This document shows positions 6,043-33,831 of a stretch of DNA of 33,831 nucleotides, in pieces. Below the pieces are notes generated by a model that was not told where the DNA came from, ran no database searches, and saw only the letters and a list, made by a program, of their open reading frames with translations. This stretch comes from a virus (taxonomy: Duplodnaviria > Heunggongvirae > Uroviricota > Caudoviricetes). The stretch lies in the IMG/VR virus record IMGVR_UViG_2681813321_000006; one strand, 5' to 3'. Position 1 is the stretch's first letter, and the number at the start of each line of letters is the position of its first letter. Position numbers and translations under genes: made by a program.

Positions 6043-6345
6043 TTACTCCGTTGATACCAGTAAATGGCTGCGACCGCCCAGGTCAGTTTTTGTGGGGTAA
6101 TCCTGTGTGTTGTCATCACAGACCACCACCAGCTTAAAACCAAGCCCCATACAGGCGTACTGCGCCAGCAGGTCAGCACCAGTGACGAGAGGAATACCGG
6201 AGATTACCGGCTCCCCTCTGTCGTTCTGCAGGTCCATAATCCAGTACAGATCGCGCCATATGATGCTAATCCGCCAGGTAACACCACCCAGGACGATGCT
6301 GAACTGCTGGTTGTCCGCTGTCAGCGGAATTTCCTGAATTGCCAT
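6043..6345 (-). CDS. Tail/baseplate-associated protein, function unassigned
   Basis: 100-aa ORF tightly packed in the tail operon (3-nt gap below, stop/start overlap above). Confidence 0.35.
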   Translation of the reverse strand: MAIQEIPLTADNQQFSIVLGGVTWRISIIWRDLYWIMDLQNDRGEPVISGIPLVTGADLLAQYACMGLGFKLVVVCDDNTQDYPTKTDLGGRSHLLVSTE

Positions 6346-6932
6346 TAGCCGCCCCCCAGTAATGACGCCACGTTACCCGTGATGCTTTTCAGCAGTGAAG
6401 TATCTGGAGGCTTGGTGGTTTTGTTGCCGCTGTTCTGTACCGCCGACGTGCTGGCCCCTTCCTTCATGTTGGTTTTATCCGCGACGGAAATCTGCTGTGT
6501 CCGGGAGATAAGGACCTCCCTCAGGGTGAGGACGGCGGACAGGACGTTTTCGGTTGTCTTGTCCGTCGTCACTTCCAGCGCCCGGATCAACATGTTGCTG
6601 TACAGTCGTTTACCGGTTACCACATCGAAGGGGATACGGCTTTCCTGCAGATCCAGTAGCTCCTGATACGTCTGCTGAGGACTCAGGCCGAGCAGGCTGG
6701 TAGCCGTCAGGTTACTGGCAAAATCCAGCAATGCGCCACCACCGGCGAAACCAACCTCCATCACCACTTCTGACGGTTTTTTATAGGCATGATCAGCGAC
6801 AGCGGCCCCGACCTCTACCGGATGCTCTGTTATTTCAAGCATATCTGTATGCTTCTCTGAAATAACAACACAGGGAACAATCATTCCTATTTTTCTGCTC
6901 TGCTGATGAAAAAGTGTAGAGAGAATATCCAC
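6345..6932 (-). CDS. Tail protein downstream of tape measure, function unassigned
   Basis: 195-aa ORF; start overlaps the tape-measure stop by 1 nt. Positional call. Confidence 0.35.
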   Translation of the reverse strand: MDILSTLFHQQSRKIGMIVPCVVISEKHTDMLEITEHPVEVGAAVADHAYKKPSEVVMEVGFAGGGALLDFASNLTATSLLGLSPQQTYQELLDLQESRIPFDVVTGKRLYSNMLIRALEVTTDKTTENVLSAVLTLREVLISRTQQISVADKTNMKEGASTSAVQNSGNKTTKPPDTSLLKSITGNVASLLGGG

Positions 6933-8920
6933 TAACCCACCCTCACCTGATTACTTCGCATGACCTGAGCATTTGCAGACTGTTGCCGACGTGCAACCTC
7001 ATTACCGACAGCGTGCGGATCTCCACCACCGTAAATGTGGTAGGTATTTTGCTGGTTAACCTCTGTCACTTTGCCACTAATTCCCGCCACGGCAGCCTTA
7101 TTAATCAGCTCCCGAGAATAGATATTTCTTCCATTCTCATGCTGGATAATGCTGCTCATCAATGCTGACATGGTTTGCGGATCGCTCATATTCAGGGCAG
7201 CCCGGGGATCCACTCCCAGTCGTTGCGATACAGCCCTGATATACGCAGTTGTGTTGTTATTATCAGACGCAGGTGCCCAGGTAGAGATAATTTTCTCCAC
7301 ACTGTTTATTCCCCGTCCGGCGTACAGCATTAACTGACGAGCAAGAGCCCGTAATCCATCAAAAGCAGTTTCAAATCTGGCAAATCGCCCGCCCGGGCGT
7401 TCAAGAGAAGCCCCTGCCTGACCAGCAAAATTAAGGTTTCCCGGATTGTTATTCCGTTCTCCTCGTTTCGTAGCCTGTGCATGTTGTTCCGGCTCATCAT
7501 CACCAAACCAGCCGCGTACCGTCCGGCCCACACTGCGGGGATCGAATCCCCAGTGCTCTTTAATCCAGTCGGCAGTACTGTTAGCGCTGTCTGTAACCAT
7601 CGGCATCGCTGACGGATTTTCGCTGCCCTGATTAAGTATCTGTTTGCCGATGCTGACGGCATCAGCCCAGCGGCCATCTTTGATAGCGTTGAGCAGGTCG
7701 GCGATCATGTTCAGCATTTTGCTGAATTCGCCCATCTGGTCGATGAAGTTGCTGAAATCCCACTTCAGGGACCATGATTTGGGGTCAATATTGAGCAGTT
7801 TCGCCAGCGCTTTCACCAGGTCGTTAACGGTCGTTTTAAGGTCACGAACCATCTTCAGCGCGGCATCGACCTCCGGTTTCCACTTGCCCCAGTCAATCAG
7901 GCTGTCGCCGCCTTCCTTCCAGGTCTGATAGTCCTCCCACAGGAGGGCAATACCCGCCGCCAGCGCGGTAATGAGGCCAATCGGCGACATCCAGAACGTA
8001 CTGTTCAGAATGCGCAGCGCAATCGTCAGTGCGCCAAACAGCGAGATCAACTCCCGCGTTTGCTTATCCAGCGATTGCCACCAGGTGATAAGGCCTGATG
8101 TCCCCTCAATCAGTCTGAAGAACAGCCGCCCGATAATATCCCCGAGCGCCAGAATGCCTTTTATGGCTTTCGTCAGGGTCTGCTCGATACGAGGGAAGTT
8201 GTCCAGGATATGGCGGCGCAGGGTGTCCAGCGAACCCGCAAGCCCCCCCGCAAGATTAGAGCCGATTTTGTCACGGGCCATGCCTGCCATCGCGCCAAAC
8301 TCACGCAGGGAGGTCATAAATTTGTTGGAGCTTCTGGCCGCCTCGTCAGCATTGAAGCCGATAGCTTTCGCCATTGCGCTGTACTGCCCGGAGAAGCCAC
8401 CCACACCCCGGCGCATCGCCATAAGGGTATTTTCGTCAATGCCCAGCATCTGCGCATACTGGTTAGCCCGGTAATACGGCATGCTGCTGAGTTTCTGTCC
8501 AACGCCCGTAAAAATAGCGGCCATGTCACGCATGTTACCGCTGGCATCACGGGTCTGTACGCCCAGGCGATTCAGAAAGCCTTCTGCACCGGGATTGTTA
8601 CGAATAAACCGGGATAGGCTTTCCAGAGAAGATCGCGCAGCGTCCACGCTGCCGCCAACCTGCGAAACCGCATAGCCAATAGACTGAATTCCCTGGACTG
8701 TCGCGCCGGTGCGCTGTGACGCCCAGTAAAGATTATCCAGGCCGGAGGCGATCTTAGCCGTGAAGGCCACCACGGACAACGCAGCTCCTTCAACAGCCAG
8801 CCCCATTTTGATGACATTTGCAGTTGTACCGGCGAGGACAGAACCGAACTTTTTCGCTCCTGCATCATCCACACTGAAGCCAAGCGAGACGAGGAAATCT
8901 TTAATAGTTTCAGCGTTCAT
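6932..8920 (-). CDS. Tail tape measure protein
   Basis: Longest ORF in the tail module, between chaperone and baseplate genes. N-terminal Ala/Gly-rich helical region and central hydrophobic segments (LISLFGALTIALRIL, IGLITALAAGIALLW). Track start 8941 is TTG; ATG at 8918-8920 is preceded by GGAGAGAGG. Confidence 0.7.
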   Translation of the reverse strand: MNAETIKDFLVSLGFSVDDAGAKKFGSVLAGTTANVIKMGLAVEGAALSVVAFTAKIASGLDNLYWASQRTGATVQGIQSIGYAVSQVGGSVDAARSSLESLSRFIRNNPGAEGFLNRLGVQTRDASGNMRDMAAIFTGVGQKLSSMPYYRANQYAQMLGIDENTLMAMRRGVGGFSGQYSAMAKAIGFNADEAARSSNKFMTSLREFGAMAGMARDKIGSNLAGGLAGSLDTLRRHILDNFPRIEQTLTKAIKGILALGDIIGRLFFRLIEGTSGLITWWQSLDKQTRELISLFGALTIALRILNSTFWMSPIGLITALAAGIALLWEDYQTWKEGGDSLIDWGKWKPEVDAALKMVRDLKTTVNDLVKALAKLLNIDPKSWSLKWDFSNFIDQMGEFSKMLNMIADLLNAIKDGRWADAVSIGKQILNQGSENPSAMPMVTDSANSTADWIKEHWGFDPRSVGRTVRGWFGDDEPEQHAQATKRGERNNNPGNLNFAGQAGASLERPGGRFARFETAFDGLRALARQLMLYAGRGINSVEKIISTWAPASDNNNTTAYIRAVSQRLGVDPRAALNMSDPQTMSALMSSIIQHENGRNIYSRELINKAAVAGISGKVTEVNQQNTYHIYGGGDPHAVGNEVARRQQSANAQVMRSNQVRVG

Positions 8921-9097
8921 TATCCTCTCTCCATTTCTCAATGCGTCGCTGGTTATCCGCTTTTACCGCCAGATGGTCATTCAAGAGAGCAATGTCATAC
9001 AAATCGACAGAGCCATCTTTAAGTGCTGTATAAGGAATTAACCCGGCGTCAACCGGATTGAGAAGGTAGGACAGCCCGTCCGGCAGGCTGTTAAACG

Positions 9098-9550
9098 TCA
9101 GCCCTGTTGCAGGCTCTGCGTCGTGCTGGTAAGGGGTGTAGGCAAAAAATTTCCCAGCGAATCGGCGACCACCCGCGCCACCAGCTGCAGCATGACCAGC
9201 AAGTCAATATCATCAAACATCAGTTCGCCCTGGGTAAATACCGGCACCCATCCGTCCATATGACGCCGCGATACCACCGCAAGACAGGGATGAATAATCG
9301 CATCGGTGTCATCTTCGGTCAGGGAAGACAGTTCCTCAGCGATACGCGGGAGCATGGTTTCAAACACCGGTTTTAACTGTTCGAATTTCACGGTGTCGAT
9401 TTTGCCGTCAGCAGGCAAACGGGAGCGAATACTCCCGAAATCTGACATCATTCCTGCCAGCACCGGCAGAAGTTTGCGGGTCACTTTCAGCTGGTCAAAA
9501 ACGCTGAGTTTTGCCGTGCGATATTTCACGCCTTTAATTTCGAATTCCAT
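9098..9550 (-). CDS. Tail assembly chaperone (gpG/gpE-like position)
   Basis: 150-aa acidic ORF between the tube and tape-measure genes; contains a TTTTTTG heptamer near its 3' end (see findings). Confidence 0.45.
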   Translation of the reverse strand: MEFEIKGVKYRTAKLSVFDQLKVTRKLLPVLAGMMSDFGSIRSRLPADGKIDTVKFEQLKPVFETMLPRIAEELSSLTEDDTDAIIHPCLAVVSRRHMDGWVPVFTQGELMFDDIDLLVMLQLVARVVADSLGNFLPTPLTSTTQSLQQG

Positions 9551-30054: not shown

Positions 30055-30684
30055 TCACTCAGGAATCTTAATCTTTCTCAATTCTTTATTTAGTTCACAG
30101 ATCTTTTTCTTAGACGGGAAAGTATCATACATCCAAAAACCAACAGTCTCTAAAACTATTATCATAACCATATACACAAGATAATTTAAAAGGCCTTCAT
30201 TTTGCCCTATGGAAATAATGCAGATAATAGAAAAAAGGGTAAACAGCACAAAACACAGAAAGGAAAACAGACGACTAATAATAAATAAAAAACCTGAAAA
30301 ATCAACATTAATAAAAAACACTCCGTTATCTTTCTCTATATAATTCTGAAGCTTAATCAACTGATTTATATACTGTCTTTTTTCTAATCTATTGCAAATG
30401 TAAATAACATCTCTTCGGTTATAAGATGATTGCAATTTCAGCGCATCACGAATAATTTTATCATTTATTCTTTTTTCTATGGCACTCTTATCCTCCTCAT
30501 CCAGATAACGTTCATACTTAACTAAATATAAAATTAACTTCTTAACATATTTAGGCTCTTTATACTTATAATTAAAAATGATCTTTCTTATCCAGACTCC
30601 CATAACAATCAAACATGAAAAAATATATCCAGCTATTTTCTCCAGATGCTCTGTATGGTCAATCAAGTATTGGATCATATGCAT
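30055..30684 (-). CDS. AT-rich multi-pass membrane protein inserted antisense in the replication operon (moron; candidate exclusion/abortive-infection effector)
   Basis: 209-aa ORF at about 28-30% G+C (hand count) versus about 60% in the flanking polymerase gene. Hydrophobic segments IAGYIFSCLIVMGVWI, FLFIISRLFSFLCFVLFTLFSIICIISI, LLNYLVYMVMIIVLETVGFW; Lys/Tyr-rich cytoplasmic region. Opposite strand to both neighbours. Confidence 0.55.
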   Translation of the reverse strand: MHMIQYLIDHTEHLEKIAGYIFSCLIVMGVWIRKIIFNYKYKEPKYVKKLILYLVKYERYLDEEDKSAIEKRINDKIIRDALKLQSSYNRRDVIYICNRLEKRQYINQLIKLQNYIEKDNGVFFINVDFSGFLFIISRLFSFLCFVLFTLFSIICIISIGQNEGLLNYLVYMVMIIVLETVGFWMYDTFPSKKKICELNKELRKIKIPE

Positions 30685-30730: not shown

Positions 30731-32794
30731 ATGTCCAATATACTATGGGGCGACCTGGAAACCTATTGCGAAATCCCTATTACGAACGGTACCCATGCGT
30801 ATGCCGAAGGCGTTGAAGTGATGCTTTTCGCATGGGCTATCAACGACGGGCCAGTAAACGTGTGGGATATCACTGCCGGTGGTGGTATTCCACACGGCTT
30901 ATACGAAGCAATCGCAGACCCTGAAACCCTGCTTTATTTCCATAACTCTCACTTCGACCGCACCGTTCTGCGTTATGCAATGCCGCGCCTGGCACCGCCA
31001 GTCGAACGTTGGCGCGACACAATGGTGCAGGCGCTGGCGCACGGTCTCCCGGGGTCTCTGGGGGAACTCTGCGAAGTACTAGGCGTCCCGCAAGACAAAG
31101 CGAAGGACAAAGAAGGTAAAGCGCTGATCCAGCTGTTCTGTAAGCCACGCCCGAAAAACAGCAAACTGCGCCGGGCCACCAGCAAAACCCACCCGGAAGA
31201 ATGGCGGCGCTTTGTTGCTTACGCCGGACTGGATATCGAGGCAATGCGCGAAGTCTATAAACGTCTGCCGAAGTGGAATTATCAGGGGACAGAACTGGCG
31301 CTCTGGCATCGTGATCAGCAGATCAATGACCGGGGCGTCTGCATGGACGTGGAACTCGCACGCGCTGCGATCGACGCGGTAGACCAGGAACAAAAGCGCC
31401 TGGCAAAGCGTACACAGGAAATGACTGATGGCGAAGTGCAGGCAGCCACACAACGAGACGCGTTGATTAAGCACATTGTTGAATCCTACGGTGTGGAGCT
31501 ACCAGACATGCAACGCAGTACTCTGGAACGTCGTATTGCCGACCCCGATTTACCATCTGCCGTGAAAGAACTGCTGGCTATCCGCCTGCAGGCCAGTACT
31601 ACCAGCACCAGTAAATACAAGGCACTGATGAAAGGCGTAAGCCACGACGGGCGCTTACGCGGTACGCTACAGTTCTGCGGGGCGTCACGTACCGGTCGTT
31701 GGGCCGGACGGCTATTCCAGCCCCAGAACCTTCCCCGCCCTTCACTAAAACAGGAACAAATAGACGAAGGCATCGAAGCACTGAAAGCCGGATGTGCAGA
31801 CCTGCTGTTTGACAATATCATGGAACTAACCAGTTCAGCGTTACGTGGCTGCATTATCGCGCCAACAGGCAAAAAGCTGGTGGTAAGTGACTTGTCGAAC
31901 ATTGAAGGCCGTATGCTGGCATGGCTGGCGGGAGAAGAATGGAAACTGAATGCATTCAGAGAGTACGACGCCGGAACGGGTCCGGACTTATATAAACTGG
32001 CGTATGCAAAAGCTTTCGATATTGCACCAGATGATGTTGATAAACACATGCGTCAGATCGGTAAAGTCATGGAACTCGGTCTGGGTTATGGTGGTGGTGT
32101 GTCGGCCTTCATCACTTTTGCACTGGTTTACGGTCTCGATCTCGACGAGCTGGCGAACGCCGCACTACCAAACATTCCCCGCGATGTTATCCGCGAGGCG
32201 AAAAGCTGGTACGACGAATCGGTTAAACGCAAGTCAACCTACGGGCTTTCTGAACGGGTATTTATCGCCTGCGACTCACTTAAACGTCTCTGGCGCCGGG
32301 CGCATCCCGCGACCTGTGATTTCTGGTACGAACTGGAGCGCACCGTCCGCACTGCAATCGCCACACCGCAAAAAACATTGTATTGCGGTTATCTTAAAAT
32401 CCGCCGCGATGGCGCGTGGCTGCGCATACAGCTACCATCCGGACGCGCTGTATGCTACCCGTCTCCGGTTATCGAAAAAGGGAATATCACCTACATGGGG
32501 GTTAACTCTTATTCGCGTAAATGGCAACGACTCAAAACCTACGGCGGAAAGCTGGTGGAGAACATCACCCAGGCGGCCGCCCGCGACATTCTGGCCGGAA
32601 ACATGCCGCTTATCGAAGATGCCGGTTACAGCATTGTGCTGACGGTACACGACGAGGTGATCACCGAAGCACCTGACACAGAAGATTTCAACGATAAAGC
32701 GCTTTCCGCGCTTCTCTCCACTGACCCCGAATGGGCGCCCGATATCCCACTGAACGCTGGCGGTTTTGAGGCGTACCACTACAAAAAAGATTGA
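30731..32794 (+). CDS. Family A DNA polymerase with N-terminal 3'-5' exonuclease domain
   Basis: 687 aa. Exo motifs: GDLETYCE (DxE), [17 protein letters not shown]. Pol motifs: [15 protein letters not shown] (motif A-like), [16 protein letters not shown] (motif B, K...YG), LTVHDEV (motif C HDE). AAGG RBS. Confidence 0.85.
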
Positions 32795-32858
32795 TATAAC
32801 TCACCTTATCGAGCTATGGCGACATGCTGAATTCGAGTAAATTAAAGGAACAATACTT

Positions 32859-33620
32859 ATGCAGGAACTAACTGAAATGCCGATCACCTATCCATACCCG
32901 AGAGAAACTTTTCCTGACTTTTTGAGGGAGTGTGGGTTCACCAATTTTTCCCACGAACAGCGTGAGACTTGTGACTGCTATCGTTTAACGAATGGCGTAA
33001 TTGTTAACCTTTACACCACCCGGACCATTCAGTTTCAAGGTAACCCTCAAGAACGTCCCAATGTTGAAACTGCAATAATGACCCATTTAGGAACGCCGCC
33101 CACGGCAACACCACTAGCCGTAGAACAGCCATCTGAGCTCCCCAAAAAGATATTCATTGTTCACGGCCATGACCATACTGCAAAGGAGCAACTTGAGCTA
33201 ATCCTTCATAAACTTGGATTACCAGACCATTTCATTTTGCAGAATACGGGAGGGACTGGACTCACCATTATTGAAGAGCTTGAACGTGAAATTGGGCAAG
33301 GACAAACTGCTACCCGTTTCGGGATTGTTCTTTTGACACCTGATGATATGGGATACTCAAAGCGCGCCGGTGAAGCAGAAATCCAACCCCGCGCAAGACA
33401 GAACGTTGTACTCGAGATGGGTATGCTTCTTTCGTCCTTAGGGCGCAGCAATGTAGCAATCCTTCAGAAACAGCACCTAGAACAGCCTTCTGATGCTAAC
33501 GGGATTTTGTATCTGAATTTCAACGACCATGTACGTGAAACAGTTCCTCGTCTAGTGCAACGGTTACAAAATTCTGGTTTCGAATTTACACAAGCTCAAA
33601 TAGCTAACGCTTCCTCGTAA
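32859..33620 (+). CDS. Two-domain protein: unknown Cys-containing N-terminal domain plus C-terminal TIR-like (COG4271-type) domain
   Basis: 253 aa, AAAGGAA RBS. C-terminal region KKIFIVHGHD...RFGIVLLTPDD...RARQNVVLEMGML matches my recollection of the TIR-like nucleotide-binding family signature. N-terminal about 95 aa with ETCDCYR. Assignment not verified by search. Confidence 0.5.
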   Translation: MQELTEMPITYPYPRETFPDFLRECGFTNFSHEQRETCDCYRLTNGVIVNLYTTRTIQFQGNPQERPNVETAIMTHLGTPPTATPLAVEQPSELPKKIFIVHGHDHTAKEQLELILHKLGLPDHFILQNTGGTGLTIIEELEREIGQGQTATRFGIVLLTPDDMGYSKRAGEAEIQPRARQNVVLEMGMLLSSLGRSNVAILQKQHLEQPSDANGILYLNFNDHVRETVPRLVQRLQNSGFEFTQAQIANASS

Positions 33621-33643
33621 TTACCCCTTATTGTTGATTACAA

Positions 33644-33668
33644 CCCTGCATCGCGGGGTTTTTTATTT
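33644..33668 (+). terminator. Intrinsic terminator after the TIR-like gene
   Basis: CCCTGC-atc-GCGGGG stem (one G.U pair) followed by TTTTTTATTT. Confidence 0.6.
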
Positions 33669-33747
33669 GGGAATAAAAACCCTATGTCATTTAAATACCG
33701 GGACAGTCCGCTTTATTGTAAGCGACTCGTCAGAACCGTATTGATAT

Positions 33748-33831
33748 TTACTGAGAGCTCAGATCAACTTTCCAGGGCAACAGATCGCGTACCCGGTTTG
33801 CCGGCCAGTCCTGGATATGTTCAATGACGTA
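33748..33831 (-). CDS. 3' end of an unidentified minus-strand gene running off the window
   Basis: Open frame from the window edge to TAA at 33748-33750; visible C-terminus ...YVIEHIQDWPANRVRDLLPWKVDLSSQ. Too short to assign. Confidence 0.2.
   Translation of the reverse strand, partial: YVIEHIQDWPANRVRDLLPWKVDLSSQ

Follow-up and report, generated by a model that had tools for sequence, protein, structure and literature searches.

A TBP-like and TIR-like fusion protein carried as replication-module cargo by Escherichia coli prophages: a candidate single-protein effector with a new type of sensor

Introduction

What a gene for a TIR-like protein does directly behind the DNA polymerase gene of a phage, and what would switch its product on, are the questions raised by positions 32859..33620 (+ strand) of the virus record IMGVR_UViG_2681813321_000006, a stretch of 33,831 nucleotides (nt) from a member of the Caudoviricetes that was analysed as a whole and is called the window here. 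Immunity in bacteria, plants and animals alike makes central use of TIR effectors that hydrolyse nicotinamide adenine dinucleotide (NAD), and the systems that use them differ in how the TIR domain is switched on. The gene at this position, hereafter the TIR gene, encodes a protein of 253 amino acids (aa) in which a TBP-like domain precedes a TIR-like one and which belongs to the PADLOC family PDC-S35. The most fitting description, in our view, is that of a single-protein TIR effector whose sensor is of a new type. The existence of the gene is not new, because RefSeq and GenBank already label the open reading frame (ORF) as a "TIR(-like) domain-containing protein" and it is listed as an untested defence candidate; new in the literature that we searched are the identity of the sensor domain, its linkage to RNase HI across phyla and the sharing of the N-terminal domain with RnlA/LsoA and with a dCTP-deaminase effector.

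Results

Profile, alignment and fold comparisons show that the C-terminal two thirds of the protein make up a TIR domain of the Cap12/PycTIR type, with the putative NAD-binding and catalytic residues kept. The initial annotation had recognised a COG4271/PF10137-type domain from its motifs alone, and this was borne out by a whole-model match to PF10137 (positions 1-118 of 119) over residues 97-222 (33147..33524, +), at 108.4 bits against a gathering threshold of 24.7 (E=2.9e-31). When a profile of 46 homologues was searched against the PDB (177,635 sequences), the only significant matches were Cap12 (7un8, 9lmq) and PycTIR (8jsj), the block RARQNVVLEMG being aligned with RDNVVFEFG of Cap12 7un8; likewise, the fold of this half is TIR/flavodoxin-like and its nearest solved structures are Cap12-type TIRs. 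In SfSTING, R78 and N80 contact the ribose-phosphate and E84 is catalytic (PMC9402430). With the 8-residue SEQRES offset applied, these residues correspond to R180, N182 and E186 of the window protein, of which R180 and E186 are invariant in the 46 sequences and N182 is nearly so. E186 (codon GAG, 33414..33416, +) is thus the predicted catalytic glutamate, aligned with the Glu of DNVVFEFG in 7un8 that equals SfSTING E84, just as had been proposed earlier for the Glu of QNVVLEMG. The motifs on which that proposal was based, KKIFIVHGHD (residues 96-105), RFGIVLLTPDD (153-163) and RARQNVVLEMGML (178-190), are all present in the translation, as are C25, C38 and C40. Beyond the Pfam model the protein ends in a two-helix extension (residues 223-253; 33525..33617, +), recognised from the AlphaFold2 (AF2) model and from conservation, with helices at 225-238 and 245-252 and ten invariant residues (H224, V225, E227, V229, L232, R235, L236, G240, F241 and A251).

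The N-terminal domain (N-domain; residues 8-78, 32880..33092, +) has a monopartite alpha-beta-sheet-alpha, TBP-like fold (alpha-beta4-alpha). Independent evidence came from sequence: its profile had as its three best PDB matches RNase HIII at E 0.019, the LsoA NRD at E 0.024 and RNase H3 at E 0.54, which share with it the motif Y-x-[ST]-G-[ST]-x-x-x-Q-G. Pfam PF15935 (RnlA_toxin) was matched by 9 out of 26 homologous N-domains (best E 9.8e-5) and PF11858 (DUF3378, the RNase HIII N-domain) by 3 of the same 26, and one homologue carries a precomputed PF15935 annotation. Each of these lines is weak or generic, and they converge; from them we assign the N-domain to the monopartite TBP-like domains of the RNase HIII-N/RnlA-NRD type and regard it as a putative sensor. 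The initial annotation had described residues 1-95 as an unrecognised domain that could be a sensor, so that the sensor proposal is retained here while the domain itself has now been recognised. The N-domain of RNase H3 binds only RNA/DNA hybrids, E27 and G52 contacting the 2'-OH and H28 and Y43 stacking on deoxyriboses (PMC4132731), and in the PDB-profile alignment the conserved aromatic Y52 is the counterpart of Y43, and the invariant G61 that of G52. The NRD of RnlA associates with RNase HI in vivo, as seen by pull-down, and RNase HI both stimulates the toxin and recruits the antitoxin (PMC5308261). A Cys-based or metal sensor, as had been suggested for C25, C38 and C40, was rejected because these residues vary even among homologues that are 70-90% identical. 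The linker that joins both domains (residues 79-96; 33093..33146, +) is variable and modelled with low confidence, its predicted local distance difference test (pLDDT) score being <50 over residues 80-94, its identity to homologues mostly 0-29% and its length variable. With the window protein as reference, median identity to 45 homologues is 71% in the TIR half and 29% in the N-domain, a contrast that is consistent with a fast-evolving sensor/adaptor module in front of a conserved effector half.

The genomic neighbourhood of the family also involves RNase H. We fetched 80 homologue loci from one-genome-per-species contigs (44-68% identical over the best-matching segment; 79 counted), which span Proteobacteria, Acidobacteriota, Verrucomicrobiota, Chloroflexi, Bacteroidota, Campylobacterota, Actinomycetota and others. 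The 601 ORFs lying within four genes of a homologue fell into 552 clusters, and only one of these was strongly recurrent: an RNase HI of 160-196 aa (PF00075, E down to 1.8e-47) with intact DEDD residues, encoded immediately downstream. It adjoins the TIR gene in 12 of the 79 loci, including tblastn matches missed by ORF calling, and the chance expectation for a single-copy neighbour gene is well below one locus. Seven of these loci are from Chloroflexi, three from Verrucomicrobiota, one from Vicinamibacterales (Acidobacteriota) and one from Hymenobacter (Bacteroidota). The rnhA gene overlaps the TIR gene or follows it after 0-12 nt (L229, L230, L235, L237, L239, L241, L242, L250, L176, L217 and L218, at about 8650-9260), the order being reversed in Hymenobacter (L234, 7392-8633), where an RNase HI-TIR fusion was considered and rejected because rnhA and the TIR gene are two separate genes 36 nt apart. 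Since the flanking genes differ between the RNase HI loci, it is the RNase HI-TIR gene pair that is the conserved unit; the 12 loci are not 12 independent events, and represent at least three lineages and two gene orders. The RNase H partner protein matched no PADLOC model. Among the 138 immediate neighbours, RNase_H was found 11 times, N6_Mtase 4 times, ResIII, DEAD and AAA_21 3 times each, and integrase, Mrr_cat, HsdR_N and HsdS twice each, with housekeeping genes also represented; neighbours of other homologues include type I restriction-modification (RM) genes, Mrr, AAA_21, PemK, Cas1 and integrases. No gene for an RNase H was retrieved by tblastn (E<=1e-3) from the window or from the loci of related phages, and the partner in E. 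coli would be the host RNase HI.

The N-domain also occurs in front of other effectors. When 1.84 billion representatives were searched exhaustively by HMMER with a profile of this domain, 848 proteins were returned at E<=1e-3, most of them N-terminal fragments or members of the TIR-gene family, and few with other architectures. Two of them are notable. The first is P0199, a metagenomic representative of 617 aa with the N-domain at residues 1-73, in which the PADLOC dCTPase model (dCTP-deaminase defence) aligns with residues 94-610 at E=7e-173, with kinase-like and cytidine-deaminase domains, and whose first 84 residues match PDC-S35 and replace the N-terminal ~140 positions of the dCTPase model itself. 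In the second, P0166 (220 aa), two tandem copies of the N-domain recall the NTD+NRD arrangement of RnlA. Because the N-domain thus heads a TIR domain, a dCTP deaminase and, in RnlA/LsoA, a HEPN domain, its distribution is the pattern expected if it were a swappable sensor/adaptor module of conflict systems. Other partners were also seen: P0212 (297 aa) joins the N-domain to a C-terminal region of 200 aa that has no Pfam or PADLOC match and could be another effector type, and P0183, P0208 and P0236 carry the N-domain with unrecognised partners.

The two-domain architecture, which we hold to be nearly certain, is common to the whole family. PADLOC PDC-S35 (model PDLC05003) matched residues 10-253 over profile positions 3-245 of 245 (E=6.8e-109), PHROG 16442 ("unknown function") was matched over its full length (E=2.4e-109), and 2703 homologous clusters, defined at 90% identity, share the size of about 250 aa and the same layout. 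On the strength of these clusters and of the PF10137 match (108 bits), we take the ORF to be genuine rather than a chance reading frame. PADLOC lists PDC-S35 as a single-gene candidate. In the preprint describing the PDC set, the candidates were derived from genes that lie within loci of BREX, DISARM and type I RM systems.

At its locus, the TIR gene (32859..33620, +; ATG start) follows a 687-aa family-A DNA polymerase gene (30731..32794, +; PF00476 DNA_pol_A), its upstream neighbour and probable co-transcription partner. As described in the initial annotation, 64 nt separate it from the polymerase stop (spacer 32795..32858, +), and a ribosome-binding site, AAAGGA, lies at 32844-32849, 9 nt before the ATG. 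The seventh codon is a second in-frame ATG (32877), preceded 9 nt upstream by AGGA, and 247-aa homologues begin there; the true start is therefore ambiguous between M1 and M7 and the first six residues, which are disordered in the AF2 model, are uncertain. A consensus scan of 32300-33831, and inspection by eye, yielded no sigma-70-like promoter upstream of the gene (0 sites), so that its own ribosome-binding site holds but a separate transcription unit does not follow, and the gene may be transcribed together with the early replication genes. A terminator scan of 32300-33831 identified a single terminator-like site, the expected one after the gene, which is a stem-loop at 33642-33660 followed by TTTTATTT (33642..33670, +). 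GC content is about 45-47% in the TIR gene vs about 55% in the polymerase gene, i.e. 8-10 points lower. Downstream, only the first 11 codons (MSFKYRDSPLY, cluster C0) of an ANR-family gene, so named in RefSeq, are left (33684..33717, +), since prophage homology ends at 33717 and the end of an IS66-family (ISCro1-like) insertion sequence, which lies outside the system, occupies 33718..33831. Across 2098 E. coli genomes this last segment has 6669 matches, annotated as IS66-family transposase, and it recurs close to the ends of many records of Stx phages.

E. coli prophages such as that of IAI1, integrated beside yfhL, match the region at 98-100% identity, and the isolated phages vB_EcoM-606R2, -689R2 and -611R5 are as close to it. 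The module comprises, in order, an S24/HTH repressor gene, small genes with a 300-aa ORF, a DUF2800 PD-(D/E)XK nuclease, an Enc34-type single-stranded DNA (ssDNA)-binding protein, an AT-rich reverse-strand ORF, polA, the TIR gene, the ANR-family gene, a 64-aa ORF, VRR-NUC, another reverse-strand ORF, an SNF2 helicase, an HTH gene and the integrase. The TIR gene is in the middle of the replication module. The initial annotation had placed it as an accessory gene at the end of the replication operon, and only the first part of that description stands, because ANR, VRR-NUC and SNF2 helicase genes come after it in intact relatives. In 39 out of 39 viral loci (L011-L049) with a close, near-full-length homologue (64-100% identical), tblastn found the polymerase upstream, with identity down to 74%, and wherever the match reaches the polymerase C-terminus it ends 56-67 nt before the TIR gene.

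Accessory status was seen in a set anchored on the polymerase, 80 phages with a >=87%-identical enzyme, of which 22 carry the TIR gene, all 22 with a gap of 56 or 64 nt, and 58 do not, so that a core role in the replication module was rejected. The interval from the polymerase to VRR-NUC varies from 219 to 1826 bp across related phages; the ANR gene is present in 75 of the 80, and alternative cargo includes DUF4406, an orphan type II methyltransferase, a PAPS-reductase (BrxP/SspD-like), a reverse-strand HATPase_c gene, an HNH endonuclease, Bro-N and DUF3268. A constant partner gene in the phage slot was accordingly rejected, the slot being a mosaic of ANR and these genes. Two TIR-gene alleles that are 72% identical lie behind 97-100% identical polymerases, with spacers of 56 and 64 nt (L113, L116 and L122 vs L091-L097, compared at the polymerase-TIR junction), and they differ mainly in the N-domain (about 46-48% identical, vs about 89% in the TIR half), which indicates that alleles or cassettes have been exchanged here. 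Among 5426 complete E. coli genomes, no more than 37 match >=80% of the length of the query region. Carriage by 22 of 80 phages, the mosaic interval, the swapped alleles, the drop in GC content, a terminator of its own and the rarity among E. coli genomes all argue that the TIR gene is a horizontally exchanged accessory gene in a cargo hotspot.

Several other genes of this module deserve mention in their own right. A 99-aa DUF4406 protein (E=6e-34) fills the slot in 12 related phages, about 280-580 nt after the polymerase (L099-L103, L105, L106, L111, L117, L119 and L142; for example L103 6282-6578); we take DUF4406 to be kin to nucleoside 2-deoxyribosyltransferases and thus presumably distantly related in fold to TIR, and its presence may be a coincidence or a functional alternative to the TIR gene. 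In L129 and L138 (about 6072-7100, -) the slot holds a 342-aa HATPase_c protein with a weak match to the DrmA N-terminus (E=3.5e-9), perhaps a further cargo of the defence type. In the window, the ssDNA-binding gene and the polymerase are separated by a 209-aa ORF (30055-30684, -) of 28-31% GC against about 50% around it, with several hydrophobic segments and no Pfam or PADLOC match, that only some related phages carry; it looks like a second, independent moron and is possibly a membrane exclusion protein. Outside the window, the intact IAI1 prophage has, between its VRR-NUC and SNF2 helicase genes, a 264-aa ORF (L001 13650-14447, -) that likewise lacks Pfam and PADLOC matches and is a candidate third moron site of the module.

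Discussion

Our favoured explanation is that the TIR gene encodes a single-protein abortive-infection NADase gated by a cue from RNA/DNA hybrids or RNase HI, a package for and against which, taken as a whole, we find the arguments evenly balanced. In such a protein the N-domain would hold the TIR domain off until its cue is met, namely an RNA/DNA hybrid or an altered engagement of RNase HI arising from the replication of a competing phage or from host takeover; packing of the TIR domains against each other, as in Cap12 filaments, would next make the active site complete, and hydrolysis of NAD+ would leave the infected cell unable to support replication, resulting in abortive infection or exclusion of the competitor. 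A role in defence is somewhat favoured by the PDC-S35 match, by the family's neighbourhoods, by the occurrence of the N-domain on the dCTPase-type protein P0199, by the contrast between a fast-evolving sensor half and a conserved effector half and by the two alleles behind near-identical polymerases. RNase HI or RNA/DNA hybrids are proposed as the cue because fold homology and gene neighbourhood both point there, and this specific trigger is put forward tentatively. It is also tempting to speculate, with slightly less confidence, that the TBP-like domain is a portable sensor of RNase HI or RNA/DNA hybrids common to several unrelated suicidal effectors, namely the TIR NADase proposed here, the HEPN RNases RnlA/LsoA and the dCTP deaminase P0199.

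The closest known relative in sequence and fold is Cap12, the TIR-STING effector of CBASS, which belongs to the same PF10137 subfamily and whose R78/N80/E84 have their equivalents in the window protein. The logic of Cap12, a sensor and a TIR NADase on one polypeptide activated by oligomerisation, would apply here as well, but the order of the domains is reversed, the sensor being N-terminal and TBP-like rather than STING, and the HGHD motif and the C-terminal two-helix extension are absent from Cap12. Orthology to Cap12 was rejected, since the NCBIfam equivalogs scored 34.8 and 30.5 bits against a cut-off of 450 and aligned with the TIR part only; C-terminal of the TIR domain there is no STING domain, only a helical tail of 30 aa, and no CD-NTase is annotated in the 25-kb IAI1 locus or was found among the window proteins scanned or the commonest neighbour families. 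PycTIR of Pycsar shares the C-terminal PF10137 TIR after an N-terminal sensor, with the catalytic motif aligned, and differs in that its sensor binds cyclic nucleotides whereas the N-domain here is TBP-like; no pyrimidine cyclase is annotated in the IAI1 locus and orthology was rejected on a partial PADLOC PycTIR match (E=1e-8, residues 132-234 against profile positions 188-272 of 288). SDIC1 of Serratia was rejected as the same protein, its TIR being N-terminal and the system having two genes.

For the sensor half, the anti-T4 systems RnlAB and LsoAB offer a comparison. The N-domain resembles the TBP-like NTD/NRD repeats of RnlA and LsoA, and the association of the RnlA NRD with RNase HI parallels the RNase HI linkage of the TIR-gene family, but the effector is a TIR domain instead of a HEPN RNase and there is one TBP-like domain instead of two. 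No gene for an RnlB or Dmd-like antitoxin adjoins the TIR gene in the window or the IAI1 locus, and membership in RnlAB/LsoAB was rejected given the C-terminal TIR and a next gene that is ANR in relatives and the IS66 element in the window. Compared with RNase HIII, the protein lacks the RNase H2/3 catalytic domain and has not kept three of the five hybrid-contact residues. SPARTA (short pAgo with TIR-APAZ), whose TIR NADase is triggered by an RNA/DNA guide/target duplex (PMC11851103), provides a functional analogy; it differs in having Argonaute and APAZ, and the recognition proposed here would be structure-specific rather than sequence-guided and performed by a single polypeptide of 28 kDa. 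PDC-S35 and PHROG 16442 account for the protein over its full length, but as labels without a function.

A number of observations weigh against our explanation. All 145 PDC candidates are called untested by the authors of the preprint, and the literature that we searched holds neither a published characterisation of the TBP-like plus TIR architecture nor an anti-phage test of PDC-S35. Taken alone, the sequence matches of the N-domain are marginal (E about 0.02, with Pfam scores under the gathering threshold), the window protein reaching 13.4-15.9 bits against a cut-off of 27 for RnlA_toxin/DUF3378 and retaining, of the five RNase H3 residues that contact the hybrid, only Y52 and G61. The AF2 model of the TIR half has moderate confidence (pLDDT 55-85), and this half is, at 71% identity across phyla, more strongly conserved than is usual in a defence effector. 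The homologue P0113 (L251-L253) sits between obg and cysS with no integrase or defence gene nearby, and therefore the family is not confined to mobile elements or defence islands; the Hymenobacter homologue too, beside rnhA and a methyltransferase-like ORF, lies outside any mobile-element or defence context. Furthermore, the gene occupies an early replication operon, in the same direction as the S24-type repressor gene and without a promoter-like site, an arrangement that would allow expression in lytic growth rather than in the lysogen and may thus fit poorly with a classical prophage defence gene, and the primed replication of the phage itself is something that a sensor of hybrids would need to tolerate. 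Three rival explanations are kept alive by the operon position without a promoter-like site, the need for self-tolerance, the homologues among housekeeping genes and the strong conservation of the TIR half.

The rival that survives best, although we regard it as unlikely, is an enzyme of the lytic cycle, produced early alongside the replication proteins, a TIR-like hydrolase that would destroy NAD-derived or nucleotide immune signals in the manner of anti-Thoeris or anti-CBASS proteins, or would remodel host NAD pools, to the benefit of the phage. The position of the gene 64 nt behind the polymerase in the early operon with no promoter detected speaks for it, as do the exact conservation of this position in the 39 viral contigs, with polymerases diverging to 74% identity, and the presence in the same slot of an orphan DNA methyltransferase, a typical counter-defence gene. 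Yet most members of the family are found in bacterial chromosomes or integrative elements without a phage, beside genes for RM, Abi, toxins or RNase HI; PADLOC drew the candidate set from genes lying inside defence systems; and two effectors by which the cell is killed or starved, the HEPN toxin of RnlA/LsoA and the dCTP deaminase, have the N-domain as well. Moreover, we know of no anti-defence protein with a Cap12-type TIR.

Slightly less probable still is a nucleic-acid maintenance factor acting with RNase HI on the RNA/DNA hybrids of primers or R-loops, whose TIR-like domain would be an N-glycosidase or decapping hydrolase of nucleotides or NAD-capped RNA rather than a suicidal NADase, and which phages would carry to aid primer processing by their exonuclease-less polymerase. 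The gene is, however, dispensable, being absent from 58 of the 80 phages with the same replication module and the query region is matched over >=80% of its length in few complete E. coli genomes (37 of 5426); its patchy distribution beside integrases, RM and toxin genes resembles that of horizontally transferred genes, and the nearest relatives of its catalytic domain are NADases with the same R/N/E triad. Finally, a signal-generating or scaffolding TIR in the style of ThsB or of adaptor TIRs, which would make a nucleotide second messenger or recruit another protein, its real effector being encoded elsewhere, is the most improbable of the three, for although a 2025 bioRxiv survey describes TIR domains of several systems that make signals instead of depleting NAD, and the RNase HI encoded beside 12 homologues could in principle be a partner, neither the phage slot nor most loci hold a conserved partner (only RNase H recurred among the 552 clusters of neighbours), PADLOC lists the family as a single-gene candidate and the domain falls in the Cap12/PycTIR effector clade and not in the Pfam family of ThsB.

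The family studied here extends from E. coli phages to Chloroflexi and couples a conserved Cap12-type TIR to a sensor that had not been linked with TIRs before in the literature that we searched, and our comparison marks the interval from the polymerase to VRR-NUC of this E. coli prophage family as a cargo hotspot. If the hybrid- or RNase HI-gated NADase that we favour is correct, a single protein of 28 kDa would become a model for the sensing of nucleic-acid structure in immunity, the unexplained requirement of the RnlA toxin for RNase HI would acquire a rationale, and one PADLOC candidate and one PHROG would gain a function. Should the TBP-like domain further prove to be a portable sensor, cells and prophages would be watching RNA/DNA hybrids or RNase HI as a guarded hub, one that phages disturb when they replicate or shut off the host, and the 253-aa protein would be a minimal and experimentally tractable form of a general immune principle.

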